Shown here: piece after piece, positions 5,850 to 61,846 of the stretch
How the letters are laid out: each line of letters opens with the position of its first letter
Position numbering within the stretch: position 1 is the stretch's first letter
Virus record (IMG/VR): IMGVR_UViG_3300033566_000071
Location: 1 to 61,846 of that record
Source of the DNA: a virus
Direction: 5' to 3' (one strand)
DNA length: 61,846 nt
Notes under the pieces: model-generated
What the model was told of the DNA's origin: nothing
Seen by the model: the letters and a program-made list of their open reading frames with translations, nothing else
Databases searched by the model: none
Position numbers and translations under genes: made by a program

Positions 5850-8800
5850 TAGAGATTTCCTCCGAAATCATGTGCTTGCCTTACGGCGTTGAAATTCAAT
5901 AGGTTCACTACGTAGCTTTGCCCGACAATGACAAGCTGCTGACTGAGCTGCTCGTGTGTCAGTTTCATTTGGAAGTAGGTGCCCTTCTTATCATCGGGGC
6001 TGCATTGGATGAGCTGAGATCCATCCACAGTGGTCATAGAGATGCGTGAATTCAAAACAAAAGAGGTGCTGAGGTTTGTGGCTGTGTAAATATTGACGCT
6101 TGTTAGCGCGGTTTCATCTGCATCAATCTGCACCGCACATCTCAGAACGCTTTTTCTATCGCCCGGGACGCCAAAGTCTTCTGCGCGGAATGTGATGCTC
6201 GCTGGGATTGCAGAGGTGCCGTCACGGAAATCGAGTGACGATCCGTAGTTACGGTATTGGTAGACAGACCCTTCCACCCCAGCGAAGAAGTTATTGTCGT
6301 CTTTGTTACATCCCAAAATAGCCGCTACGTTTGTGAAACGTGTCCAGCTTCCTGGCATGCCCACTTCTTCATTATCATATTGATAGATGAAGGACTGAGT
6401 TGGGTAGGTGTCACCTGTGCCTGGGTTGGCTGTAGGCGGAAGATAGACGGAATATTGACGCCTATCGCCCCAGTGGGAAGCTGCCGCAATGTCAAGAGAA
6501 GTGTTATCGACAAGGCTGTCCCACTTTCCTCTCATATACCTTCCAACAAACACAACCTGCATGTCTTTTGTCAGCTTATAGATGCCGCCCTTGTTGACAA
6601 ACATAATGCCGTCTTTGGTGGGTGTAATTGTCTTCGGAGCCGTACATCCTACGCCCCTACTATCAATTTTTTGATATTGACGTGTGGCAGTGTTACAGAC
6701 ATACATTGAGTTGGCTTTAAAAAATACCACCACTTGGTTGAGGTTGGCTGCACCAAATGTCGATGTGCCGAAGAATGGAATGGCCGCTGTCAGTTCCTGT
6801 CCGTCGGCTGGGTTGATGTCCACGACGCTTCTGCTCATCGTTGGATCGGCATCCAAATTATCAAATATTTCAGGATAGTTTTTGAAGCTAATGGCGGCGC
6901 GAGAAGGATAGAGGAAAGTTTGTGAACTAACCACTTCAGCTGAAGCGCGTGCCAGCCCGTTGACAAAAACGCCGAGCCCTGTTGGGAGGGTGCCCAAGAC
7001 AATCTCGCTAAACCCAGATTGCGTCACTTGGTTTTCAATGACAACTTGCCCAATCCCATAATCGGCCCCTGCGTAAGCTGTCAGCCATGGGCGAAAGGAT
7101 GGGTAGGTTGATTTGGTGTTATATTTAGAAAACACCATAGTGAAATTGATAGCGTCGGCTAAGCGCCTTGCCGCAATAAGCTCAGCGCTGGCAGAGCTAT
7201 TCCCATCTACCTGCCCGTAATTGCCGTCTGTTCCAAGCCAAACTGGAATGTCTGTCTTCACTGTGGCTGCGACATATCTATTGGGCGAAACTGTTCCAAA
7301 TGCAGGGGCGGTCGAAAACCCTCGCCCAGTTAGCTGAAATGTATCCACGTCTGCCGAGCTAATCTGAAACCAGCCACAGTAGCTGTTAGGTTGATTGTCG
7401 CCCAGAGCTGCATAGAACAAGTAAATCCAGTTACCTGTCACAAGCCCGTGTGCTGGTGAATAGAATAGGTCACTCGATTGCCACCCGCTTGACGTGAGTG
7501 TGTTAGTGCCGGCTCCGGCATTTGAATAGGTGATGGCGGTGCCCGCAACAGCGTCCGCACGGGTACGTGCAAGCTTAAAGGTGCTAGCCGAGACATAGAT
7601 GGCGTAGTAGGTGGTGGCAGCGGTGAGGCCTCCTCCACTTGTGGCCACAGGCAGTGATGCACCTGTTAGTCTAATTGCAGCTCCCGTCAGTAGGCCATGG
7701 GCAGCCTTGGTGATGATGCCTGTTCCTATTGTGACGTCTGCATCGGTGAACGTGAAGGTGCCCGTGAAAGGAAGTGTAACGGTGCCGGATGTGACATATT
7801 CATAGCTCTGAACATTCTCAAAGTCAGATGTGGTCGCTACCTCATCACTATCTTTTCGGAAAAGATATTTGAAGCCTGCCATAGCAGCCGTTGTGACAGA
7901 GCTTGACGTAGGCTTCATTGTGATGTCCCAGCGCGGCCATCCTTTGAGGTTGCCTATGATTAGGGAATTGTCGGCTGACGTGACAAATCCAGCCTTATAA
8001 GGAGGCTGCCATCCAGTTCCTATTTCTGTCCCCAAAAGGGCTGTGTTAACTGGATCGAGTTGAGTGAGAAAATCATCATCCAAATCATCATAGATTATGG
8101 GAACGATGGGCGAGGTTGAGGTCATGTCTAGAGCAATGCGCTTTGTCAGGTAGAATGGAGCGGAGGTGTCAGATTTTGTCTTGTAAAATTCCATCTCTAT
8201 TCTGGCATAATCCGAAAATCCAACTATGGGATAGTCGGACGCCTTAATCATAACCCTTCCAGCTGTGTACACGTCAAAATACATATCACTGCTATTGGCC
8301 GCTGCCGAGGCAATAACATTATCATTGGCATCAATCATATTGAAACGAACGTAGTAGCGAAACCGCTTCACTTTAATGAGCGTACCAGTGTTTGCTAGGC
8401 TGGACGTATCTCCGCCGACAATGATGTTCCACTTGTCTGTAGTGTCTGGAACAAGCTGCTTATCCACCACCGTAAAAACCTGCAGCGTGTGTGTGCTGTC
8501 ATAAATCCTATCGCCCACGTCGAATGCATCAGAGGCAATTTGGAAATATTTACCAGTGGTTGAGGTGTTTGTGTAGGCGACAGCAAATCCGGGCTGTATA
8601 CTTGCCACTGACGTATCTAGATTCATAAACACAGCTGGAATATTACGGCGCAGTCCTGCATCGTAATTATTTGTGCCATCATATTTTACAATATCATCAT
8701 CGCCGTTGGTGAAAAACATTGTATCGGCCATAACTGTTGAGGCTACAACTGGCTGGCTGCTATAGGTGTTATAGTCAAAATATTGGTAGGCTGTGTCCAC

Positions 8801-20001: not shown

Positions 20002-21162
20002 TTAGCGGCCAAAGTTTCTGAGAGCGCTCAGACGGTCGAGAACATTCAGGCTCTCAAACCCTTCCGATTGCCTTGCAGCGGGAGCTGCTTGGCGAGCCAC
20101 TGTGGCTGCCTTTTTCTTTTCTACAGCCTGCTTTTCTTCAGCCTTTTTGGCGGCTGGAGCAGCTGCTGCTTTTCGGTTGCCAACGAGGAATTTGTAATTC
20201 GTCTCGAAGGCTTTGCGGTATTGTTCCCGCGTAAGGACAGGATCTTTTCCTGTGTTCTTTTTCACATCATCTGCATATTCTTCGATGTCACTCATCGCAA
20301 GTTTCCACAGCTTATGCTGAAGGGCTTCCTGCTTTGTTTCGTCCTGCTCGTGCTGGGCGAATGAGAATCGATAGTATTCAGATTCGGCAATACTTCTCTG
20401 TACCTGTGCATGCTTTTCAAACTCGTACGAAGCCAGCTTTTCGTCGCGCTTCTTAATTTCCCGATTGTTCAGAAAGCGTTCTTGCTCTCTTTCAGCATTC
20501 AGAAATTCCTGCGCAATTTTGGCCTTCTCGTCAGCGTCGTCAGCCAGTTCGTAACGAACCCGCTTAAACACTTGATCATTGAAGAACTTCTTGTATCCCT
20601 CTTCGCCCAAGAGAGCTTTGACGGCCAGGGCTTCATTTCCACCCTTCAAAATGTCTTCGAGTTCTGCAATTCTGCTAGCTTGCTGGGACAGTGTGCCATT
20701 CTCTTGCTTCAGTCGTTCGACTTCGCGTTGAGCCTCTTTGCGTTCCTTGACGAAACGAGGAGCTGCTTTGCCCCATTCCAAAGTGCGGCGTAAATCCTTG
20801 TCTTCTGGATCCAGCTTGAACTTGAACATTTTGCCATCGGATTTGATTTCGAGCTCGGGAGCCGATGCCGGGGGCGGCAAAGAGTCGTCGAGCTTATCCA
20901 TCGCGCCAATGTCAAGGTCTGGCTCAGCCTTGTCCGAAGAACCTGTTAAGCTGGAAAGGTCCAGCTCGCCTTCGCTTTCGCCTGAATCACCCGTCACAGC
21001 CTCTGCGTCTGCCGGAGCGCTAGCTTCGCCCATGAGGCTTGCTAGGTTGTCAAGAGGGCTTGCTGTGTCAGAAGCCTTAGCTTCCGGCCTTTGGCCCTGT
21101 GGAACGCCACTCGATGCAGTCACTGATTTGAAAGCCATAACTTTTTCCTTCTTCTTTACCAT
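20002..21162 (-). CDS. Scaffolding protein candidate
   Basis: 386-aa ORF (E/K/A-rich, acidic N-terminus, coiled-coil) between the portal and capsid genes. An alternative start is at 21138 (MAFKSV, preceded by AAGGAAAAAG). Confidence 0.55.
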   Translation of the reverse strand: MVKKKEKVMAFKSVTASSGVPQGQRPEAKASDTASPLDNLASLMGEASAPADAEAVTGDSGESEGELDLSSLTGSSDKAEPDLDIGAMDKLDDSLPPPASAPELEIKSDGKMFKFKLDPEDKDLRRTLEWGKAAPRFVKERKEAQREVERLKQENGTLSQQASRIAELEDILKGGNEALAVKALLGEEGYKKFFNDQVFKRVRYELADDADEKAKIAQEFLNAEREQERFLNNREIKKRDEKLASYEFEKHAQVQRSIAESEYYRFSFAQHEQDETKQEALQHKLWKLAMSDIEEYADDVKKNTGKDPVLTREQYRKAFETNYKFLVGNRKAAAAPAAKKAEEKQAVEKKKAATVARQAAPAARQSEGFESLNVLDRLSALRNFGR

Positions 21163-21265
21163 GCCTTACGTTGGAGCAAGCTCGCGTGTGGCAGGTCATT
21201 GTGGGGCCCATAAGGGCCTTTACACATGAAAGAATCCATCCAGCCCAATGCCGGGTGAAGACGTA

Positions 21266-21291
21266 CGAAAACCTCATCCCGGAGAATGAGG
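21266..21291 (-). terminator. Terminator-like hairpin inside the noncoding island
   Basis: Minus strand reads CCTCAT-tctccggg-ATGAGG followed by TTTTCG. Confidence 0.4.
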
Positions 21292-21580
21292 CATCTGAAT
21301 TAATTGAGTTTTTCATTTGGAGGCAATTGTGGTGACAATAGGAGCAGAAGAGGAGACAGTGAGCCATCCTAGCTCTTTTCCATTTGGTTGGCCGGTTGGA
21401 TTCCGGCTGACTGCTGGCGGCTTTTGACCTTTTATTAACCAGCTTCTTTATGCACTCGTGTCATTGAAAGTGCTCGCCCAGCCGTAAGGAGGAGAGGTCG
21501 GTCATCGGGTAATGCTTCTGCACTCTGTGCTTTCTCGCCGTCCGAAGTTATCGCCTGATCCGGTGCCCTATGGCAAGTGT

Positions 21581-21609
21581 GTTATCTCCTGCCTAGGTAA
21601 TAATGTCAA
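21581..21609 (-). promoter_or_regulatory. Sigma70-like promoter candidate, TTGACA-N17-GATAAC
   Basis: Minus strand: TTGACA (21609..21604), a 17-nt spacer, then GATAAC (21586..21581). It lies 25 nt after the portal stop. Confidence 0.35.
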
Positions 21610-21633
21610 GCTTTTTCTTACGTGACGAAAACA

Positions 21634-23640
21634 TCAAACTTGGCCCGGTCCTGGGGCAACCCCTCCGGGAGCGACAGCACTCGCTGCGGCTGCTATATCC
21701 GGTGAGCCTGTGGCAGCTACTTGACCGGCTCCGGCTGGAATTGCTCCCACACCCGGCTGTCCCGGTGGCTGCCCAGAAGTTTGACCGGCAGCGACAGAGG
21801 CTGCCATGTCCACGCGTGCGTCGATATGGCGGTCGACCAGCTCTTGCAATTCAGGTGCGAGATAGGCAAATTGTGCACTAGACCGATATTCCTTACAAGC
21901 TTCGAGCATAGGTATGTGGTCTTCGTTTTTCTTCGGTTCAATGAATATTGCCTGACCATCCATAAACGCCGCTTCCATTTTGTCAAAGATTTCATTTTGC
22001 CTCATCTTTGCCCGACTCACCAAATCGACGGGACCCTTGCTATCACTCAAGCGCATAAAGCCCAATATTTGAGAGGCGCTATATCCAGCCTCGATGAGAA
22101 GGTCTTTGAGCTGCATCACTTCTTCTCTGCGGCTCTCAGGATCCAGCGAGAAGCTTGTACCGTAGTCGGTATCGAAGTCGTATTCTCCTTCGAGGTCGGA
22201 TCCATTATAGAAGGCAAGACTAACACCATCTTCTTTTCCAACAATATCAAGCTTCTTTGGCTCAGTGTAGCGCAGCTGTACAAGCTCGAGATAGTCTCGG
22301 AAAAAGCTTTCTGTAGCGAACTGAAATTTTACGAAGAACCGGCGGCGTGTCAGGTTGGCACTATTAATTGCTGACTGCGTAGCATACCCTGAGAGCTCTC
22401 TCTTGATTTGACCAAACATCGATTCATTGACGCCTGCCAAAGCTTCCATTCCCGCTTCGAGGCGCTGACGGAATTCGCCCATAGCTGGCATGAGCTGGGG
22501 AGGGTTGATGTAGAGGGGAGCCGGGCCTCCGCCGCCCTTAACTTGAATGATGTTGTAGGTGTCAGTGCTCACCTGCTCGCCCACTTCCATATCGTCATAG
22601 ATGACAAGGCGAACGTTTCCGTGAGCTTGTATCTGCTCAAGAGTGAAGGAATCAATTCGATTCATCACGTCCTGAAGTCGGTTGGTGTAATCGAGGAAGC
22701 TCTTTCCGTAAATCTGACCGGGCACATCGATGTCGGTGTGGATTTGATAGGGGAGCTTGGCGCCTGGGTGGGTGTTCTCTTCCATCTCGCCCATGAGGAC
22801 ATATTTGTCTTGAGAAAGCCAAAGATAGCAATGTCTTCCGATGAAGCCGTTCCATGGCTGCCCCACTTCCCAATATTCATACACCTCGAAAAGCTCTTCC
22901 TCAAACTTATCGCCTTTGTCCCTATTGGCGGCGTTCGTCAGAAAGACACCCTTTTTATCGAGGATGAATTGACGTTGATCGGGCCAACGTGCCAGGGCTT
23001 CGTCCAGCGGGAGCCTTTGGCGGTCGAATAGATATTTGACATCCTTCCAGCATGTTGCATCTGGATCGGCATAGATTTCCCAAACAAAGCGGGCCTTAGC
23101 ATCGATGTCGCCTTGCGTCTCAACAGTGCCCTCTTTGACGTTTGTCACGATCGGGCCGATTGCAGGGTTCCACCAAAGCTTCGAAAAGCCGGTGCCGTAC
23201 ATCAGTGTACCGAGTGTTCGCATGTCCTGAATATCTTGGACATTTAGTTTCTTTCGCCCATAATGGATGAAGCTGTCTGCCACAAGGGCAGCGCGTCTGT
23301 CCTTGTATTCAGCTGTCCTCGGAGTGGGAATACAACTCGGTGGGTTGGCTGAGGCCTGCGCATGCAGAAACCTTAAGTATTTGAAACTATAGCTGATGCC
23401 GAGAGAGCTGTCTGGAGCATCCATGCTTCGAGATGCAATTGCGTTATAAATATCAATTGGTTGGGAAGCACTTCCTCCACCTTCATTGGAGCGGTCCCAG
23501 TAAGCAGCAAAAGCGCCTTCTTCATTAAGGCGCCACTGATCTTCATGATATTTTTCACGCATGTCCCTAGAATAGATGAATTTTTTGTGAAGGCTTTTGA
23601 GTAGCTCTGGAATGGTGGGGGTGAGAATGCGCCACTTCAT
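21634..23640 (-). CDS. Portal protein
   Basis: 668-aa ORF downstream of terL and upstream of scaffold and capsid, with a G/P/A-rich C-terminal tail. Size and position match podovirus portals. Confidence 0.75.
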   Translation of the reverse strand: MKWRILTPTIPELLKSLHKKFIYSRDMREKYHEDQWRLNEEGAFAAYWDRSNEGGGSASQPIDIYNAIASRSMDAPDSSLGISYSFKYLRFLHAQASANPPSCIPTPRTAEYKDRRAALVADSFIHYGRKKLNVQDIQDMRTLGTLMYGTGFSKLWWNPAIGPIVTNVKEGTVETQGDIDAKARFVWEIYADPDATCWKDVKYLFDRQRLPLDEALARWPDQRQFILDKKGVFLTNAANRDKGDKFEEELFEVYEYWEVGQPWNGFIGRHCYLWLSQDKYVLMGEMEENTHPGAKLPYQIHTDIDVPGQIYGKSFLDYTNRLQDVMNRIDSFTLEQIQAHGNVRLVIYDDMEVGEQVSTDTYNIIQVKGGGGPAPLYINPPQLMPAMGEFRQRLEAGMEALAGVNESMFGQIKRELSGYATQSAINSANLTRRRFFVKFQFATESFFRDYLELVQLRYTEPKKLDIVGKEDGVSLAFYNGSDLEGEYDFDTDYGTSFSLDPESRREEVMQLKDLLIEAGYSASQILGFMRLSDSKGPVDLVSRAKMRQNEIFDKMEAAFMDGQAIFIEPKKNEDHIPMLEACKEYRSSAQFAYLAPELQELVDRHIDARVDMAASVAAGQTSGQPPGQPGVGAIPAGAGQVAATGSPDIAAAASAVAPGGVAPGPGQV

Positions 23641-23832: not shown

Positions 23833-25367
23833 CAGAATGCTCTCCGTCCTGAATATTTGCGTCCCCAAATTTTGGATTTACGCTTCATGGCTTCTGCTAT
23901 TTTAATTGAGGCCTTACGCTCTTCTGCAAGCTGGCTTTGTTTCATCTCGTGATAGACGGATTCGTAGATGCGGGGCATCTCCTCATCCTTAGGCTTCTTC
24001 ATCCACAAATACCGCACAGTGTCCGCGCAATGGTATTTGTGCGAATTCACAATCTCTTTTTCTGTGGGCTTCCATTTAGCCTGAAGCATTTCCGTGTGAA
24101 GCGTTTCAGTTGCCTTGCCCTCTGCCATCATGAGAAGACCATTGTGCCATGCAACATTCACATTTTCAATTGATTCTAATTTCTTGGCCATTTTGTCAGT
24201 GATGGGCGAATAATCGATACCCTGCACCTGGGCCTCTTTATAAAACCCGCTGGGCGAGCTGTCACAAATGCGGCTACCCTTCGGAAGCCTGATGCCGGAT
24301 AGATGGCTCGTCTCTATCTCACGGACAAGAAGGCTAGCTGCGCTGCCGTCCATTGTGAGGGCCTTAACACACCACCAAGCCGGATGGGTAGGGCTCTTGC
24401 ACCAAAGCGTCACACCCACCTTTCCGCTCGCTGCAGGATCTACGACGACGGCGTGCTGAAGACTTGGTGCATAGGTGAAGGGAAGAGGGGCCCTGTTCTT
24501 ATAGGGATCATAGCCACGGAAGACGCGCTCGCTTGAAAAATACCAAGCGCCGTGTCGACGGGCCTGAAACTCCACCTCGTCCCCGCACTTGCTTCGAATC
24601 AAATCGTCAAGCTGCTCGACGGTCCAGCCTTCATAAATTGGATTGTCTTCGAGCCTAAGAATCCATTTTTTAAATGGAAACTGACATTCATCGACAAGCT
24701 GCTGGATTGCTGGGTTTTCTACGAGCGGTGTAAATGTTCCGTAAAAATAGCCGGATAGGGTCATCCCTGGCTCAATCTTCTTTGTGCTTGTGGCACTGAC
24801 GCGGAGAAGAAGTTCGGCCAAAAAGCTCTCGTCATCTGGCATCTCATCGAGCCACACCACATGTGCGGTGAAGCCCTGCACTTTTTCCCGTGCATTTTTG
24901 GCGTCGTGATGGGATAGGAAGAGGAGGCGGTTTCCGTTGGAAACATGCTCGACGCTTTTAATGAAGGCGCCTTCCTTCTGCGGATTGCGGAAGGAACCCG
25001 GAGGTAGAAGGGGCTTGAGCTTATTCGCCCAGAGCTCTTCTGTTATGAGCTGGCCAGTGCGGCCGGCCACGATGATGAGGAGGGGTTGGTCTGCCCACTC
25101 AGGCAGGCGCTTTTTGAATGGATGAGTTCCCAAAAACCACCACGCCACTTCTCTTGCGCCAGTTGAGGTTTTCGAAGAGCGGTTGGCCCCAATAATCCAA
25201 TGGCCCCTATGCTCGGTATCCATTATGATTTTTCTGGCATTTCCTCTTGGGCGAGAATCGAGGTCTCCTGCGACAAAGCACGACAAAAGCTTATCACTGC
25301 TCTCTGCCCTCAGTTTGGCATAGGCAAGACGCTTTTTGTCCGTGGAGTTGCCGGAGACATTACTCAT
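23832..25367 (-). CDS. terL: Terminase large subunit
   Basis: Walker A-like IIGANRSSKTSTGA, Walker B HVVWLDEMPDD, and nuclease-type acidic motifs AVVVDPAASG and CADTVRY. 511 aa. Confidence 0.9.
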   Translation of the reverse strand: MSNVSGNSTDKKRLAYAKLRAESSDKLLSCFVAGDLDSRPRGNARKIIMDTEHRGHWIIGANRSSKTSTGAREVAWWFLGTHPFKKRLPEWADQPLLIIVAGRTGQLITEELWANKLKPLLPPGSFRNPQKEGAFIKSVEHVSNGNRLLFLSHHDAKNAREKVQGFTAHVVWLDEMPDDESFLAELLLRVSATSTKKIEPGMTLSGYFYGTFTPLVENPAIQQLVDECQFPFKKWILRLEDNPIYEGWTVEQLDDLIRSKCGDEVEFQARRHGAWYFSSERVFRGYDPYKNRAPLPFTYAPSLQHAVVVDPAASGKVGVTLWCKSPTHPAWWCVKALTMDGSAASLLVREIETSHLSGIRLPKGSRICDSSPSGFYKEAQVQGIDYSPITDKMAKKLESIENVNVAWHNGLLMMAEGKATETLHTEMLQAKWKPTEKEIVNSHKYHCADTVRYLWMKKPKDEEMPRIYESVYHEMKQSQLAEERKASIKIAEAMKRKSKIWGRKYSGRRAF

Positions 25368-30807: not shown

Positions 30808-31298
30808 GACAGCTATTCGAGCTGACGCTCGAAGTATGAGAGCTAAGCGAGAATGATTAGCGAATAACAGTATGTGGTTCACAGATTGTGAATAGACGGG
30901 CTGCTATGAATTAATTGGGAAGGTCTATGTATTGGGCTCGTACCTCGCCCATATGGGTAGCTAATAAGTAAGCGATTAACAGGTAGTCTAAAGCCTATGT
31001 ATTAATTCGCAGCACTTCGATCTCATCGCCCAGGGAGTCTGAAAACTGGGCTCGAGCTCTACGCTTTGCCCTTAGTCGCCCAGGGAGATCCGAGTATGCG
31101 GCTACTTTCCCTGGTCGCCTAATCGCTTGCTGCGTCCCGCAGCTTCGCTGGGCTTTGCTCATTACCGTTTGTTGTTAAATCAGATTATACTCACTTTCCC
31201 TCCCCCCCTGTCAAATTTTATTTTCAACATAAAGAAATTTTTATCTCTATCATTTTGGCTAGGCTTGCTGTATTTTTCTGCCAGAAATGGAGGACAAT
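30808..31298. promoter_or_regulatory. 490-nt repeat-rich noncoding region (candidate origin or regulatory hub)
   Basis: Hairpin TTCGAGC-tgac-GCTCGAA at 30816..30833. Palindrome TTCACAgatTGTGAA at 30878..30892. CTATGTATT occurs twice (30925, 30995). TCGCCCAGGGAG occurs twice (31026, 31076), with an inverted partial copy at 31109..31119. AAGCGATTA (30970) pairs with TAATCGCTT (31120). Confidence 0.5.
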
Positions 31299-31967
31299 AT
31301 GGCTAAGTCTAGGAAACATTTGAAAATCAATGCAAAATATGCCACCACCGTGGTGGACGCTGTTGTGAAAGATTCTGGTGATAGGGCCCTTCTAAGTGTC
31401 CTCCTCAAAGCGTTTGACGTTGGCAACGGAGCTAAGCTATCTGAAGTGCAGACAATTGTGGATAAAAAGAATGGGTTCTTGCGGGATGCCATCACTAAAG
31501 AACCAATAGATCACCAAGTGTGGAAGGCCAATGCTGGGCCTATTCCCAAAGGCTACATAATCTATCACTTGAACGGCAATAAGCTGGACAATACCTATGC
31601 AAACCTAATGGCTATGCCGAGAGCAGTATTTAGGACGGTGAAGCTCCTCTATCCCAACCCAGGGGAAGTACCCAACAAAGAGCACATCCTTGCTCTGATA
31701 GCTGCCTATCAAAAGAGTAAAACAAACACTGAGCAGATGGTGAGCGAGGCAGAAAAAGCTATGCTAGCTAAAGTGCTGAAGGAAGAAGACGCGCAAAGGC
31801 GAGATAGGGCCAAAGAGAAGAAGAAAGAATATTCTCTGAACAAAGACAAGCCGAAGGCAAGGCGCACCGAAGAAGAGAAGGACGCTATTGCAAAGTTTGT
31901 GGCTGAGAAGAAGGCGAAAGAAGAAGCTGCCAAAGCTCTTACACCAGCGTCGGAAATCCCCTGGTAG
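31299..31967 (+). CDS. HNH-type (HNH_3-like) protein with K/E-rich C-terminal tail
   Basis: Start at MAKSRKHL after a GGAGGA RBS. The motif is GYIIYHLNGNKLDNTYANLMAM. The C-terminus is lysine/glutamate-rich. Confidence 0.55.
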   Translation: MAKSRKHLKINAKYATTVVDAVVKDSGDRALLSVLLKAFDVGNGAKLSEVQTIVDKKNGFLRDAITKEPIDHQVWKANAGPIPKGYIIYHLNGNKLDNTYANLMAMPRAVFRTVKLLYPNPGEVPNKEHILALIAAYQKSKTNTEQMVSEAEKAMLAKVLKEEDAQRRDRAKEKKKEYSLNKDKPKARRTEEEKDAIAKFVAEKKAKEEAAKALTPASEIPW

Positions 31968-35924: not shown

Positions 35925-36155
35925 ATGAAACGGAGTCAATTACCTGAATGGGCACAACGCGACAAGCCTATTAGGTGTAGGACCTGTAAGTCCAGATCTA
36001 ATGATTGGACAGGACCAACTATAGGTCCATCTGGTGTTACATACTTGTGCCACTGTGGTAAGTGTGGACGTAAAGAGATAGCAGGAACTACGCAGCTTAG
36101 AGCGGGTAGCGCACTTACTAAGCTGGCTCAAAGCATGTCGGAGGGGGATGTATGA
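35925..36155 (+). CDS. Zinc-ribbon protein
   Basis: Start at the ATG of the junction cassette GGAGGGGAATGTATGA. Contains CRTC...CHCGKCG. Confidence 0.55.
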   Translation: MKRSQLPEWAQRDKPIRCRTCKSRSNDWTGPTIGPSGVTYLCHCGKCGRKEIAGTTQLRAGSALTKLAQSMSEGDV

Positions 36156-36394
36156 ACGTAGATCGTATGATTGATAGAATAAACGACTGGAAGCTTTTGA
36201 TTGAGGTGATGGGGCTTCCAGACAGAAAAGTGACACAAATGGGGGAATGTGACGCAATTATAGAAGCACTACGAGCGGGGCAGCAACTACGAGAAGACAT
36301 TAACAACACTCCGCAATTGTTAGGTAGGGTACACCCAGCAAATATGTCCGGGGTGGTAAAGTGGGACGCGGCAACGAGGGAGGAGGATGTATGA
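36152..36394 (+). CDS. Small protein, ALRAG...WDxAT paralog 1
   Basis: 80 aa. Contains IIEALRAGQQLRE and the C-terminal KWDAATREEDV. Junction cassettes at both ends. Confidence 0.65.
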   Translation: MNVDRMIDRINDWKLLIEVMGLPDRKVTQMGECDAIIEALRAGQQLREDINNTPQLLGRVHPANMSGVVKWDAATREEDV

Positions 36395-36603
36395 ACTTGG
36401 TAGAAATGATCCAATGGATAGCTGATCGAGATCACTTGCACGATGGACCTAAGATTACAGCCGCACTAAGGGCTGGTGAGAGGATGAGAAGTTGTTACAT
36501 CTTACCAGGGCACCGCCAATGCCCCGAAGGTATGATAGCAGCAGTGGACTATAAGTGGGCTTGTGAAGCTTGGGACGCAGCTACAAAGGAGGAGGATGTA
36601 TGA
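36391..36603 (+). CDS. Small protein, ALRAG...WDxAT paralog 2
   Basis: 70 aa from the cassette ATG. Contains ITAALRAGERMRS and the C-terminal EAWDAATKEEDV. Confidence 0.65.
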   Translation: MNLVEMIQWIADRDHLHDGPKITAALRAGERMRSCYILPGHRQCPEGMIAAVDYKWACEAWDAATKEEDV

Positions 36604-36812
36604 ATAATGTAATTGAGATAAATGGTCAATCAACCACACAGGAAACGATGCTCATAGCAGAGCTGGATATTGCTGAATTCAATCACAAGATAGCCTCAGA
36701 GGAAATGATGGTGGCTGAATATTCGCTACGCTCGGCCACAGAGCAGCTCGCTACCGCCAATCACAGGCTGAAAAAAGCCATTGCAAATGTCGAAAAGGAG
36801 CTGCTTAAATGA
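36600..36812 (+). CDS. Hypothetical coiled-coil protein
   Basis: 70 aa from the cassette ATG (MNNVIEINGQ). Confidence 0.55.
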   Translation: MNNVIEINGQSTTQETMLIAELDIAEFNHKIASEEMMVAEYSLRSATEQLATANHRLKKAIANVEKELLK

Positions 36813-37063
36813 AAGAGACAACGCTGTCGATAAATTTGATAATGGACAATTTCCCACCTGAAATTCAGGCCGACATTATAGAACATGCGGCTGAGGAAGG
36901 AATTGGCAATATGGATATGGCGTGTCGCCTCTACGCAAGCGTGATGCGAGCAATGTCAATATTCGAGCCTGAGCAAATTCGGGAGATGCCCGAAGCAATT
37001 CAAGGAAAGCTAGCCCGGTGGCAGGCATTTCTTCTCGCCCAGCAGACGAAGGAGAATGTATGA
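36809..37063 (+). CDS. Hypothetical protein
   Basis: 84-aa ORF with an ATGA overlap upstream. It ends in the cassette (..TKENV). Confidence 0.6.
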   Translation: MKETTLSINLIMDNFPPEIQADIIEHAAEEGIGNMDMACRLYASVMRAMSIFEPEQIREMPEAIQGKLARWQAFLLAQQTKENV

Positions 37064-40560: not shown

Positions 40561-40759
40561 GACAATAAAAAGAGTAATAATCAATTATGTGAGCAGTGAT
40601 GATAAGTATTTCGTGGTAGTCAATGATAGGTTGGTAGGCAGTTCTACGTCGTTCGACTTGGCTATGTACATGGCCAATCAGGTAATTGACAAACTGCTTC
40701 GCCGTGAGGTAGAATTAGGCTATTCCCAATCAACCTTCTATCTAGGCGGGTGCGTATGA
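40547..40759 (+). CDS. Hypothetical protein
   Basis: 70-aa ORF overlapping the nuclease gene's 3' end. Confidence 0.5.
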   Translation: MTSNETIKRVIINYVSSDDKYFVVVNDRLVGSSTSFDLAMYMANQVIDKLLRREVELGYSQSTFYLGGCV

Positions 40760-41358
40760 AATTTCTCTTGACAATGGCAATGTTTCTATGCTCCTGCGTA
40801 TTTGCTGCTGGCAATAAAACCCCAATCCCCCCAGCAGCTACGCTCGAAATTGTGGGCGATGTGAATGGGTTGATGAGTATGCTTTTTCTGGTTAAGAGCA
40901 ATGAGCTAGCGCTCCTTCCAGTTAAAGCCATTCCTAGCAACGTGGTGCAAATTAACATTGCATCTAGGGGCGGGGAAGTGGAGGCCATGAAGCAAATTTT
41001 GGAGCGCATGAAGCTGCTCAAAACATATGGCTATGTCTTCTCGTGCACGGCCACAATTGCCTATTCGGCCGCGTTCATGATTTGGGAAGAATGTGATAGC
41101 AGGCTGGCCTATAGGCTCTCAAGCCTGCTTTTCCATCGCCCATACATCTCGTTCGCCCGTAACATCACTAGCAAAGATGCTAGGGAAATGGCAGACGGGC
41201 TTGAAAAGGACGACGTTGTCTTCATCAAAATGCTCATGGAAGGCGTGGGCAAATTCATGCCCGAGGTCGACGTCATAAAGCACATGGACGCAGAAACATT
41301 CTGGACAGGTGAGACGCTTTGTAAGCAGGCCCCAGGATTTTGCTACCTCCTAAATTGA
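40756..41358 (+). CDS. Exported (lipoprotein-type signal) ClpP/S14-S49-like serine protease
   Basis: ATGA-coupled start. Signal peptide MKFLLTMAMFLCSCVFAAG. ClpP-like blocks INIASRGGEV, TIAYSAAFMIW (Ser) and SLLFHRP (His). Confidence 0.6.
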   Translation: MKFLLTMAMFLCSCVFAAGNKTPIPPAATLEIVGDVNGLMSMLFLVKSNELALLPVKAIPSNVVQINIASRGGEVEAMKQILERMKLLKTYGYVFSCTATIAYSAAFMIWEECDSRLAYRLSSLLFHRPYISFARNITSKDAREMADGLEKDDVVFIKMLMEGVGKFMPEVDVIKHMDAETFWTGETLCKQAPGFCYLLN

Positions 41359-47487: not shown

Positions 47488-48104
47488 ACTACGCAAAGCA
47501 GGCTTGGATCGACTCAATAAAGGTGGACTATACGGATAAACTATCAGCCGCTGAAGCAAAGTGGCTCCGTGAATTCAACCTAAAGCAGCGCTGGAGTGGC
47601 GAGGATGCACTGAATAGGTATGATAACATTTATACAGTGGGGCATAAACTGGAGGATGGTTGGGAATACACTGTGCCAGACACATCCAACCCAGAAGCCA
47701 TCGTTTCCACACTAGAAGAAATAGCGCTAGGATATGTCCCAGAAGAGCAACCTGAACCCAAGCAGTGGATAAAGCCCCTTGTTGGGCGCTATTATGATAG
47801 GGATATGAAGAGGGGTTATTGCTGTCTGCTGCCTAAGGTAGGTGGCCTTGACGCTCCCGCTGTGCGCTATCGTAGTATGTTAGACGCCTGTTACAACCCA
47901 CACTCCAAACGTTACAAATCCTATGGGGCAAAAGGAATTAGAGTTTGTGGTAGGTGGTTTTATTCTTATGGGGCATATGTGCATGACATAGGCACTTTTG
48001 TTGAAAACGGCATACTAGGACTGATTGATAGGACGAAGGATTTTGGGCCAGACAATGTGGAATGGAAGGCTGTCATATACAAGAAAAAGAAGAAAGTTTC
48101 TTGA
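47484..48104 (+). CDS. Hypothetical DNA-binding-type protein
   Basis: ATGA-coupled start. C-terminal YRSMLDACYNP..YKSYGAKGIRVCGRW motif, common in small phage nuclease-associated DNA-binding domains (from memory). Confidence 0.5.
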   Translation: MNYAKQAWIDSIKVDYTDKLSAAEAKWLREFNLKQRWSGEDALNRYDNIYTVGHKLEDGWEYTVPDTSNPEAIVSTLEEIALGYVPEEQPEPKQWIKPLVGRYYDRDMKRGYCCLLPKVGGLDAPAVRYRSMLDACYNPHSKRYKSYGAKGIRVCGRWFYSYGAYVHDIGTFVENGILGLIDRTKDFGPDNVEWKAVIYKKKKKVS

Positions 48105-53857: not shown

Positions 53858-54081
53858 GCAAGTTGATTGAGCGTATTACGCAGTTGGAAGCAGAAGCAGG
53901 TGATTGGGACTTATCTTCATTGACAGATAACGAATCTCAATATTTCTTTGCCCTGGTTGTCGCCTACCCCAAACTACGGGCTGTAGTGCTGGCTGCATTA
54001 GAGGCAGAGCATGAAAGTCGTACTGGGATAGTCACAAGTAGATTACGAAGCGCGTTAGCAGCGCTGGAGGAGGATGTATGA
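53854..54081 (+). CDS. Hypothetical protein ending in the junction cassette (..ALEEDV)
   Basis: 75-aa ORF. Confidence 0.55.
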   Translation: MSKLIERITQLEAEAGDWDLSSLTDNESQYFFALVVAYPKLRAVVLAALEAEHESRTGIVTSRLRSALAALEEDV

Positions 54082-54161
54082 CCCTAGCAGTGGTTGTTTG
54101 GTTTATCTTTATTAGTTTGGCTGCAATAATAACTACCATAGCGGTAGAGGAGAATGTATGA
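54078..54161 (+). CDS. Tiny TM peptide (27 aa) bracketed by two junction cassettes
   Basis: Sequence: MTLAVVVWFIFISLAAIITTIAVEENV. Confidence 0.35.
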   Translation: MTLAVVVWFIFISLAAIITTIAVEENV

Positions 54162-56363: not shown

Positions 56364-56744
56364 ATGGAAAAGAAGTTTAAAATTTTGGTGTGCGGCGGTA
56401 GAAACTATAGAGACTGGGACACACTTGTCGCCCAGCTAGACACTCTACAACCCATCTCTTGCATTGTAAACGGAGGGGCTGGAGGAGCAGACGAGATGGC
56501 CGCTGATTATGCCCATGAGCGCAGTATCATGTGCTACACTCACCATGCCAAATGGAGTGAGTATGGAAGGCGAGCCGGCCCAGTGAGAAACAGACAAATG
56601 CTCGATTTACATCCAGACCTCGATATGGTTGTGGCCTTTCCTGGCGGAAAGGGGACAGCGGATATGGTTAAGGCCGCTGACGAAAGGAAGATTTTAGTCT
56701 GGGACCTAAGGGTAGAAAACTCGCCCGCCAACACGAAGACGTGA
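56364..56744 (+). CDS. SLOG-superfamily protein (DUF2493-like)
   Basis: Motifs ILVCGGRNY, VNGGAGGADEMAADYA, GPVRNRQML and FPGGKGTADMV. The family name is from memory. Confidence 0.65.
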   Translation: MEKKFKILVCGGRNYRDWDTLVAQLDTLQPISCIVNGGAGGADEMAADYAHERSIMCYTHHAKWSEYGRRAGPVRNRQMLDLHPDLDMVVAFPGGKGTADMVKAADERKILVWDLRVENSPANTKT

Positions 56745-57053
56745 ATCAATATGGATCCATGTCTTCGTCGCAGATGGGTGTTCCATCCAAATATTGAAGC
56801 GCTCTAAATTGTCTTGAATGAATTTCAAAAGTTCTGGCGTTCTCACCAAATCAGCAGCTACACCATCAACATGGGCACTACGTTTGGCCCCGCCTATGGA
56901 TTGATTGTGGCGCTTACAGCGAGCTGCAGAGGAAAGGGAAATGGGCTGGCCATAGGCCTCTCTAATTTCATTCAAAAGCTTTTTGAATTCCGGCCTCACC
57001 GAATAACCGCACCCGCACGAGCACTCAAGCTCTTTGTCCGAAAAGTAGTTCAT
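56706..57053 (-). CDS. Endolysin, peptidase M15 (M15A/M15_3-type) family
   Basis: Motifs FSDKELECSCGCG, SSAARCKRHNQSIGGAKRSAHVDGVAADL and WIHIDSR. No signal peptide. Confidence 0.85.
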   Translation of the reverse strand: MNYFSDKELECSCGCGYSVRPEFKKLLNEIREAYGQPISLSSAARCKRHNQSIGGAKRSAHVDGVAADLVRTPELLKFIQDNLERFNIWMEHPSATKTWIHIDSRLRVGGRVFYP

Positions 57054-60862: not shown

Positions 60863-61846
60863 TTATTTCTTAATTGTGGTGAAGGATTGCTGCAATATTT
60901 TGGCATAATCGGAGCGAGCCTTTGCATCGGCATCCCGTATTGATTTGCCTTGCTTCATATACTCAGCTGTCTTGGCACGGATGAATGTCCCTTGATTTTC
61001 GAGCACATCTCTAACTTGAGGGAATTGCTTGAGGGCTTCAATGTTCTTTTGCTGCTTTACGCCAGCCTTAACCACATCATCATAATCAGGGCCAGAGAAC
61101 ACACCTTGCCCGGCTTCCTGGTAGATTTTCGGACTCGCAACCATTCCGTAGCCACGCGCCTGCGCAATTTGAGCATCAAGCATCTGAAGCTTACCTACGG
61201 CCTCAGCCCTAGCATCATTGCCCTTTAGCCTACTAATCGCACCTGCGGTGCTCTGCCAAGCGGCAATGTTTTTATCAAGTTCAGATTCACGCTCTTTGGC
61301 CAAGCTTTCGACAGCGTCCTTACCGCCGCCGGCAGCACGCTCAGCGCGGGCCAGCATTTCATCATTCCACTTCATAAGGCTATCTTGATAGGTGCGCTCC
61401 TGCTGCTCATAATCTGTCTTATACCTAAGGCGCTGCCCCTCGTTCTGCCACTTTCTATAGGCCATTTCATACATGGCATTACGCTCTTGCTTCGATTCGC
61501 CCAGACGCTGCCGCTCTTTATTGAGCGCATCCATATCAACGCCATAGGCTTCTTTGGCTGCAGCAAGTGTGTTCGAGAGGTCACGCTGCACTTCGTTAAG
61601 CTTTTGGCTCCAGTCGGTGGTGTTGAATTTCACGCCACTGAGGTCCTGGCCAGACTGAAGGCCAATTGCACCGGCAGCTATAAGGCCAACAGCATTGACG
61701 ATTTTTTCTGTCAATTCCTTTTTAGCCACATTATCCGTCGCCACTTTATTGATGGCCATTAGGTCATCGATTTGCTGCTTGACGGCAGAAGCTTTAGCTT
61801 CAACCTTTTGCTGATTGCGATCCATCCCAGCTGAAATGTCACTATA
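60863..61846 (-). CDS. 3' half of the junction-spanning late gene (continues from 916..1)
   Basis: The ORF-track ATG at 61825 is an internal Met. The frame stays open to the window end (61846) and is in phase with 127..916. Confidence 0.8.
   Translation of the reverse strand, partial: YSDISAGMDRNQQKVEAKASAVKQQIDDLMAINKVATDNVAKKELTEKIVNAVGLIAAGAIGLQSGQDLSGVKFNTTDWSQKLNEVQRDLSNTLAAAKEAYGVDMDALNKERQRLGESKQERNAMYEMAYRKWQNEGQRLRYKTDYEQQERTYQDSLMKWNDEMLARAERAAGGGKDAVESLAKERESELDKNIAAWQSTAGAISRLKGNDARAEAVGKLQMLDAQIAQARGYGMVASPKIYQEAGQGVFSGPDYDDVVKAGVKQQKNIEALKQFPQVRDVLENQGTFIRAKTAEYMKQGKSIRDADAKARSDYAKILQQSFTTIKK
61720..61846. repeat. Terminal direct repeat, exact copy of 1..127
   Basis: Same as above. 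Unique genome length is therefore 61,719 bp. Confidence 0.97.

Follow-up and report, generated by a model that had tools for sequence, protein, structure and literature searches.

The virus genome recorded in IMG/VR as IMGVR_UViG_3300033566_000071, analysed here over its whole length of 61,846 nucleotides (nt; "the window"), carries on its minus strand a long stretch without a recognisable gene between the genes for the portal protein and a scaffold-like protein. We read this island, with moderate confidence, as the control region of the scaffold-capsid operon, made up of a promoter and a long cis-regulatory leader with an internal attenuator-like terminator. A sequence-only reading of the window had drawn attention to the island and had offered, among other possibilities, a long regulatory leader or a strong late promoter for the capsid operon. 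It is this proposal that gains support from comparison with related phages, through a promoter motif found family-wide, a hairpin whose stem is kept by compensatory changes, and covariation in the last 100 nt of the leader.

Host RNA polymerase with a sigma-70-type factor would start at a promoter termed P1, with the first transcribed nucleotide predicted near 21574, and would transcribe a leader of ~436 nt. The first ~310 nt of this leader would form an insert that is specific to the clade, evolves fast and closes with a hairpin and a short U-tract. This hairpin would act as a leaky terminator (attenuator), so that some polymerases would stop near 21267 and release a leader RNA of ~310 nt, and others would continue. 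The read-through messenger RNA (mRNA) would then carry a 100-nt 5' untranslated region (UTR) of three hairpins abutting the Shine-Dalgarno sequence, and this UTR would set the stability of the scaffold mRNA, its translation rate or both, possibly through binding of a phage protein, comparable to the autoregulation of scaffolding protein in phage P22. The transcription unit would end at a strong terminator past the capsid gene.

A non-coding stretch between the portal and scaffold genes

The portal open reading frame (ORF) occupies 21634-23640 on the minus strand and matches the Pfam family P22_portal (E = 2.3e-20) as well as SU10_portal, and the next long ORF after it on the same strand is 20002-21162. 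Homologues of the protein encoded there begin with MAFKSV or MSFRSV, and the in-frame ATG that matches these N-termini in the window is that of 21138 (start codon 21138-21136). A Shine-Dalgarno sequence, AAGGA (21150-21146), lies 8 nt 5' of this ATG, and the start region is conserved in all members of the window's clade. The untranslated stretch therefore extends over 21139-21633, or 495 nt (471 nt if counted to the first ATG). The gene that starts here (20002-21138, minus strand, 378 amino acids (aa)) is assigned as scaffold-like by its position between portal and capsid; its product has no sequence match in Pfam, PHROG or PDB, and all eight of its homologues sit in the same genomic position. 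The gap is the largest of the late arm, where every other gap is 95 nt or shorter, bearing out the earlier observation that late-arm gaps otherwise stay below 100 nt.

The reading frames establish that the stretch is non-coding. On the transcribed strand, ORFs starting with ATG reach at most 9 codons, and alternative starts give a 20-codon GTG ORF and a 30-codon TTG ORF. The description of an ORF-free island is thereby confirmed, with the immaterial correction that the limit of 14 codons first given for it was slightly too strict. TAA, TAG and TGA each occur in all three sense frames of the gap, in the window and in three relatives, which excludes stop-codon recoding, and a hidden or recoded gene was rejected on the strength of these four genomes. 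A 96-aa Cys/His-rich ORF (21367-21077) enters the scaffold gene out of frame; it has no Pfam or PHROG match and is interrupted by stops in the closest relative, L166.

All the motifs that had been listed from the sequence alone were located in the window at the coordinates given for them. The comparison with Rfam that had been suggested as a check was made, and no family of Rfam 15 matched at gathering thresholds in the whole window; at E <= 10 over 20900-21900 two chance-level matches appeared. Fourteen relatives likewise gave no Rfam match at gathering thresholds, and at E <= 1 seven relatives gave a single, irrelevant one. ARAGORN found no transfer RNA or transfer-messenger RNA gene in the window. 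Folded as a whole (496 nt), the gap has an energy of -149.2 kcal/mol, with z = -2.27 for the sense strand and +0.57 for the antisense strand. The case that the gap is more than chance comes from its conservation in relatives and not from the sequence of the window by itself.

Relatives were collected through the portal protein, of which a large protein collection held 98 others; contigs were taken for the closest ones, and JGI metagenomes and IMG/VR supplied another 160 loci, an initial IMG/VR scan with a single portal sequence having found no match. The comparison set comprises about 175 related metagenomic loci. The family is uncultivated: no relative was found, at the DNA or protein level, among 50,697 GenBank phage records, and the sole relative found among 185,579 species genomes is L175 (JALZUO010000146.1), a 49.7-kilobase (kb) contig binned with an Oligoflexales metagenome-assembled genome, whose portal is 34% identical.

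Most family members have 40-230 nt between the portal and scaffold genes. In an alternative layout, a peptidase M15 gene of ~130 aa follows straight after the portal gene, and ~80-170 nt then precede the scaffold gene. The long ORF-free stretch is limited to the window's own clade, where the non-coding stretch measures 495 nt in the window, at least 606 nt in L166 (scaffold protein 76% identical), about 560 nt in L001 (past two inserted ORFs), 721 nt in L003, 658 nt in L005, 546 nt in L174 and 514 nt in L167; related arrangements are also seen in L006, L086, L171 and L172. All clade members with this region sequenced keep such a segment, although identity falls as low as 67% for the portal and 40% for the scaffold protein, and the gap is ORF-free in every member examined for ORFs.

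The remnant of a lost gene, one of the possibilities raised by the sequence-only reading, finds no support in these gaps, which are ORF-free in the clade members examined. Nor is the usual occupant of the slot a prohead protease, as had been supposed; in this family it is the peptidase M15 gene or nothing. A decayed M15 gene was rejected for lack of residual protein similarity: tblastn with 12 M15 proteins gave no match in the gaps of the window, L003, L005, L006 and L086, and in that of L001 chance-level matches only (E about 0.9). The window does have an intact peptidase M15 (endolysin-like) gene, but in another place (56706-57053, minus strand). As a separate observation, the replication arm, away from the head genes, encodes a ClpP-like protease domain (Pfam CLP_protease, 2.5e-6; 40750-41358, plus strand).

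A predicted scaffold promoter and the proximal leader hairpins

P1 is a predicted sigma-70-type promoter, read from the sequence at 21609-21581 on the minus strand and 25 nt past the portal stop, with TTGACA at 21609-21604, a 17-nt spacer and GATAAC at 21586-21581. The -35 hexamer is perfect; the -10 hexamer was scored as agreeing with TATAAT at 3/6 positions and is without the final T. The block TTGACATTA..AGGAGATAACAC at P1 is kept in L166, with unalignable flanks. Farther out in the family, cTTGACA-N17-TAnnnT stands just 5' of the scaffold gene in nearly all distant relatives, and the pattern TTGAC[AT]-N16-18-[TG]AnnnY is found within -260..-20 of the scaffold start at 51/68 distant loci. 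Sites of the P1 type occur at 3.36/kb in front of the scaffold gene, against 0.20/kb on the remainder of that strand (a 17-fold difference) and 0.13/kb on the antisense strand. Since so many distant loci carry such a site before the scaffold gene, TTGACA-N17-GATAAC is to be regarded as the local copy of the family's scaffold-capsid promoter, whose position and -35 hexamer the close relatives keep as well.

Reading the sequences revealed no convincing further promoter 3' of the hairpin and before the scaffold gene. A repeated phage promoter or regulatory motif was rejected as an account of the island, because the window shows no enrichment of the candidates GCTTGACAT, GAGATAAC and TTGACA-N-GATAAC and no direct repeat joins the gap to other regions of the genome.

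From the hairpin and U-tract to the ATG, the leader was aligned for the window, L166, L001, L003 and L169 (n = 5), and RNAalifold predicted from this alignment three hairpins on the minus strand. H2 (21260-21235) consists of the stem CACCCGGC/GCUGGAUG with the loop AUUGG, and 7 of its 10 pairs are changed on both sides. H3 (21229-21196) has an outer stem, UCAUGUG/CACAAUGA, around GGCCC-UUAU-GGGCC (21218-21205); the outer helix (UCAyG../..CArUGA) is 100% paired, with 5/7 pairs changed on both sides, and the inner hairpin has a different sequence in every relative. H4 (21192-21163) is formed by UGCC...GGCA enclosing GAG-CUUG-CUC, with helices 4-6 paired at 82-100%. Taken together, H2-H4 comprise 30 pairs, 21 of which are changed on both sides, and 87.2% of 148 cells are paired; none of 500 shuffles reaches any of these measures. 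When the partners are slid by 1-3 columns, pairing is 34-46% and the covariation score 0.11-0.20, compared with 0.66 for the true partners. Covariation in related phages, which the sequence-only reading had proposed to look for, is thus present in this part of the leader. The compensatory changes support H2-H4 as a structured leader, from which we infer an effect on the stability or translation of the scaffold message. A covariance model of this leader (R1), run over 825 kb, recovered its five training sequences and nothing else; in the window it found no second copy of the structure.

Distant relatives carry, between P1 and the Shine-Dalgarno sequence, 1-2 copies of a family hairpin with the plan stem1-YA-UCC..loop..GGA-C-stem1'. 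Its strict pattern gives 52 matches in 70 leader windows, a density of 5.3/kb as against 0.11/kb elsewhere and 0.09/kb antisense. A covariance model of the family hairpin (R2) gives 52 matches at E <= 1 in 65 distant loci (622 kb, both strands), all of them in sense orientation and none farther downstream than the called start of the scaffold gene; examples are L165 6977-7004 and 7028-7052, L146 7142-7169, L127 7302-7329 and L062 2208-2261. Because these matches all lie on the sense strand at the scaffold leader, RNA-level control of the scaffold message is probably a trait of the family. The motif has no match in Rfam and may be a new cis-regulatory element of phage scaffold genes.

The two leader structures are not connected by these models: R2 has no match in the gap of the window or in the leaders of L001, L003, L005, L166, L167 and L169, and R1 has none outside its training set. 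H4 is nevertheless like the family hairpin in outline (CAU-GCC..GGC-CGCUG in L001 and L003) and has the same position between P1 and the Shine-Dalgarno sequence, and it could have been derived from the YAUC..GAC motif of the family. A near-canonical variant of the family hairpin, AUCC(A)CCC..GGG(C)GAC, occurs in clade B relatives, and such a variant is seen in L005 and L167. The window's clade thus appears to have remodelled an RNA-level leader element that belongs to the whole family.

The middle segment and its terminator-like hairpin

The hairpin that would serve as attenuator, GCCUCAUUC-UCCG-GGAUGAGGU followed by UUUCG (4 U in total), lies at 21292-21266 on the minus strand, with a 9-base-pair (bp) stem at 21292-21271 and an energy of -12.8 kcal/mol. 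It had been described as terminator-like from the sequence alone, and the relatives add that its stem is kept as a structure. At the same position the stems are CCUCAU/AUGAGG in the window, GCUCGG/CCGAGC in L166, GCUCCCG/UGGGGGC in L001 and AGCUAUGUCU/AGACAUGGUU in L003 (13 bp), wholly different in sequence yet paired through fully compensatory changes, with energies of -11.7 to -16.4 kcal/mol. A conserved UUUCGyACGUCUyCACC follows directly 3' of the hairpin. The U-tract is U4 in the window, U3 in L166, U5 in L001, U6 in L003 and U5GU4 in L169, and L167 has none; strong terminators with U5-U7 occupy this position in several relatives.

Between P1 and the hairpin lies the middle segment (21293-21574, minus strand), a clade-specific stretch that is predicted to be transcribed, contains no ORF and is nearly unalignable in relatives. 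Going downstream, it contains a second GATAAC (21552-21547), the anti-Shine-Dalgarno-like CTCCTCCTTA (21494-21485), GCTGGGCGAG (21482-21473), small hairpins at 21473-21452 and 21443-21413, the hairpin GCCGG-N7-CCGGC (21407-21391), and a C-rich, G-poor stretch with repeated CUCC (about 21360-21293), all on the minus strand. The resemblance of CTCCTCCTTA to the anti-Shine-Dalgarno end of 16S ribosomal RNA, on which the sequence-only reading had remarked, is there in the window, but the stretch is not conserved in relatives and was rejected as a functional element.

The case for GCTGGGCGAG as an RNA motif is weakened, since TGGGCGA (reverse complement TCGCCCA) is over-represented throughout the genome. 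It has 115 copies in 61.7 kb (53 on the plus and 62 on the minus strand), ~15 times the rate of a random 7-mer, for example at 21474-21480, 2569-2575, 24251-24257 and 37035-37041, with no bias in gene orientation and no extended flanks. With up to two mismatches, GCTGGGCGAG itself has 140 copies versus 59.8 +/- 8.1 in shuffles. TGGGCGA is enriched in the close clade (4-13 per 10 kb) and not in distant relatives (0-2 per 10 kb), and it could represent an iterated motif specific to the host, of the Chi or uptake type or a target of modification.

Neither blastn nor three MAFFT strategies produced a reliable alignment of the middle segments, which, short motifs excepted, are essentially unalignable even between the window and L166. 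What they share is an order of motifs (GATAAC-like, GGGCGA, GGUAAA, and in most of them CGAUGA) and a closing helix, in which the first ~10 transcribed nt pair with the segment just 5' of GGGCGA. This helix was found in independent minimum-free-energy folds of the window, L166, L001 and L003 and in the consensus of L005 and L167. The folding z-scores are -0.17 for the window, -2.1 for L166, -4.65 for L001, -6.3 for L003, -6.7 for L005 and -7.0 for L167, with -0.5 and +0.9 for coding controls, so that the window's version is the shortest and least structured among those folded. A model of the segment from clade B (R3) did not detect it in the gap of the window (2.4 bits, E = 0.47 in 601 nt), and no covariance model links the clades.

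On another reading, the middle ~280 nt would be a neutrally decaying insertion, a hairpin-rich mobile element or a lost gene, and only P1 and the last ~130 nt would matter. We regard such a mostly functionless spacer as unlikely. It would explain why the segment is unalignable even against a relative whose scaffold protein is 76% identical, why z is -0.17 in the window and why its length varies between ~230 and 500 nt in relatives. Mobile genes do enter the region: in L001 a homologue (8073-8693, 36% identity) of an HNH-endonuclease-like gene of the window is inserted between the portal gene and the promoter, which marks the portal-scaffold intergenic region as a landing site for mobile genes. 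The window has two such HNH-like genes, at 47523-48065 (the homologue) and 31287-31967, both on the plus strand (PHROG HNH 4e-15; Pfam HNH_3 4e-11). On the other side, phage genomes rarely keep 300-500 nt of junk, and the segment persists in every clade member with the region sequenced; the relatives' copies are folded far beyond chance and share the motif order and the closing helix, and the segment shows no protein-coding trace and does not resemble the M15 gene that distant relatives carry.

The same folding of the relatives' copies bears on another reading, that the stretch from P1 to the hairpin and U-tract is a discrete phage small RNA gene (~310 nt here, 150-500 nt in relatives) acting in trans, by targeting host or phage mRNA, as a decoy against defence or as an assembly cofactor, with the scaffold-capsid mRNA arising from read-through or from upstream transcripts. 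The sequence-only reading had listed a discrete non-coding RNA of about 300 nt among its options, and what it described is seen most cleanly in two relatives. In L006, TTGACA is followed after ~230 nt by GGCCC-TCAC-GGGCC and U7, and in L171 TTGACA-18-TATGTT is followed after ~150 nt by GGAGGC..GCCUC and U5AU3, with another TTGACA before the scaffold gene. The very strong folding in L001, L003, L005 and L167 (z = -4.7 to -7.0) and the recurrence of GATAAC, GGGCGA and GGUAAA in the same order would fit as well. So would a comparison of L005 (8135-8665) with L174 (3371-3891): the two are 90.6% identical, and two whole hairpins have been swapped for unrelated ones in the same positions. This looks like cassette-like helix swapping and suggests selection on the helices themselves. 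A discrete small RNA is a serious rival, but we hold it to be doubtful for the window, where the segment is shortest, least conserved, without significant folding and closed by a weak terminator. The clades are, besides, not joined by covariance models. P1 is moreover positionally homologous to the promoter that serves the scaffold gene directly in the rest of the family, so that the RNA would at least also be a leader.

A bolder form of this idea, to which we give little credence, makes the P1-to-hairpin segment a new class of trans-acting structured phage RNA of 150-500 nt that would be made abundantly from the strongest late promoter, beside the portal gene, would exchange its peripheral hairpins as cassettes (as between L005 and L174) and would double as the scaffold-capsid leader. 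Such an RNA could serve as a decoy against a host defence that senses RNA or its structure, or, like the pRNA of phi29, help in assembly or packaging.

The strong leader terminators of relatives, and the further terminators after the capsid gene in the window, could also belong to a module for processive antitermination, of the types known from lambda (PR'-tR' with Q, or nut) and HK022 (put). RNA or DNA elements shortly past P1 would make polymerases started there resistant to the leader terminator and to later ones, transcripts from the portal operon would be stopped, and late expression would be timed and specific to the promoter. We judge this to be quite improbable, though the layout of promoter, structured RNA, terminator and highly expressed late genes fits. 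Like the PR'-qut-6S RNA-tR' unit of lambda, the island has a predicted sigma-70 promoter, a putative short non-coding transcript, a terminator-like hairpin and then late head genes on the same strand. Unlike it, the island lies inside the late arm between portal and scaffold and not at its start, has a longer leader and a further structured 5' UTR, shows no recognisable pause or qut element, and is accompanied by no Q-like gene that we could find. As in HK022 put, a structured RNA just past the promoter and before terminators could act without a phage protein; put, however, is ~70 nt with two defined stem-loops, compared with 150-500 nt and variable hairpins here, and there is no sequence similarity or Rfam match.

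Two features of the segment itself speak for antitermination. The conserved 5' domain is closed by the first nucleotides of the transcript, and a C-rich, G-poor stretch precedes the hairpin in all six clade members profiled (the window and five relatives). Such a stretch could also be a rut site for Rho-dependent termination. Its peak in the window is an excess of C over G of +18 per 80 nt (21280-21360, where G accounts for 8/80), which is only the 98.9th percentile of windows on the transcribed strand and is exceeded by several coding windows, some of which come to +25. The boxA-like CUCUUA is short and, as CUCCUUAC in the window, poorly conserved; the leader elements have no further copies in the genome; and antiterminator (N, Q) or sigma families are absent from the Pfam matches of 65 ORFs and the large ORFs, most of which have no match at all, so that a novel factor may still be encoded.

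Our preferred reading, a promoter with an attenuated leader, has to be weighed against several of these results. The generic scans listed neither P1, whose weak -10 (GATAAC) lacks its last T, nor the hairpin with its short tract of 4 U, and both the start site and the termination are predictions from sequence. The covariation comes from 5 sequences only, and the H2-H4 structure had been obtained by RNAalifold from the same alignment that was later used to score it. Neither significant folding nor conservation is seen in the middle ~280 nt of the window's island, so that its larger part is, in this genome, without measurable constraint or demonstrated function. It is also counter-intuitive to place a terminator between a promoter and the genes expressed most highly, and distant relatives have none between promoter and scaffold gene. 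Where relatives do have strong terminators, these fit a discrete RNA gene or an obligatory antitermination better than leakiness. The absence from 65 ORFs of an antiterminator or extra sigma factor recognisable by Pfam counts here too.

Comparison with P22 and T7, and genome context

A virion requires scaffold and capsid proteins by the hundred, and portal and terminase in few copies. To our knowledge, how tailed phages that use the host polymerase reach this ratio has been worked out for only a handful of models. In T7, the class III promoters phi9 and phi10 stand before the scaffold and capsid genes and the terminator Tphi after the capsid gene, a layout that boosts the proteins needed in hundreds of copies. 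The window has the same arrangement, with an internal promoter between portal and scaffold and a terminator after the capsid gene. T7 differs in having its own RNA polymerase and short leaders, whereas here the promoter is predicted to be of the host sigma-70 type and the ~436-nt leader has an internal hairpin and U-tract; no phage RNA polymerase family was found in this genome with Pfam.

P22 offers a parallel at the level of the message. It has the gene order terminase, P22-type portal, scaffold and coat in common with the window, and the titles of two papers listed in PMC5529062 speak of post-transcriptional autoregulation of its scaffolding protein gene (Casjens & Adams 1985; Wyckoff & Casjens 1985). 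Where P22 controls the scaffold message at the RNA level, the leader of the window has a conserved structure that abuts the scaffold ribosome-binding site. The scaffold proteins of the two are without homology, and the idea that scaffold protein might bind this leader would be pure inference from the analogy. We know of no RNA operator that has been defined for P22.

The island would then be a known kind of element, a promoter with a structured and attenuated late-operon leader, built from RNA motifs that are absent from Rfam. An uncultivated, podovirus-like family with a P22/SU10-type portal and an HK97-fold capsid has a conserved internal promoter and scaffold-leader RNA structures throughout, a simple hairpin motif in distant members and, in the window's clade, a three-hairpin leader preceded by a long, terminator-ended insert. 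The clade is small; the biology is plausible and conserved. If the leader binds a phage protein or gates transcription, it would be a second, sequence-defined example of scaffold-gene control after P22, and a source of compact regulatory parts for phage engineering. If the insert were a trans-acting RNA, the interest would be considerably greater.

The window begins and ends with an exact 127-nt direct repeat (1-127 = 61720-61846), and it therefore represents a complete genome of ~61.7 kb, either circularly permuted in the assembly or with direct terminal repeats. Late genes occupy about 900-26600 on the minus strand, and replication genes (DNA polymerase A, helicases, ThyX and MazG) are on the plus strand. 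Downstream of the scaffold gene, a 467-aa protein is modelled with an HK97-fold capsid structure (predicted local distance difference test, pLDDT, 81.4), and Foldseek matches the model to the capsids of phages Pa223 (1.6e-10) and SU10 (1.9e-9).

After this capsid gene the terminator scan listed a strong intrinsic terminator, GGGGGCC-CCAC-GGCCCCC with a T-rich tail (18563-18546, minus strand, -16.8 kcal/mol), which marks the end of the scaffold-capsid unit. Farther along the same strand, two tandem terminator-like hairpins (17626-17609 and 17602-17582) follow a 280-aa gene downstream of the capsid gene; together with the terminator at 18563-18546, the hairpins at 17626-17582 suggest stepwise attenuation along the late arm. 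Elsewhere in the genome, the ribosome-binding and start regions are nearly identical in four small genes (GGAGGAGGATGTATGA, at 36140-36161, 36362-36400, 36571-36609 and 54049-54087), two of them preceded by a shared TGGGACGC..GC block, and these four gene starts look paralogous or duplicated.

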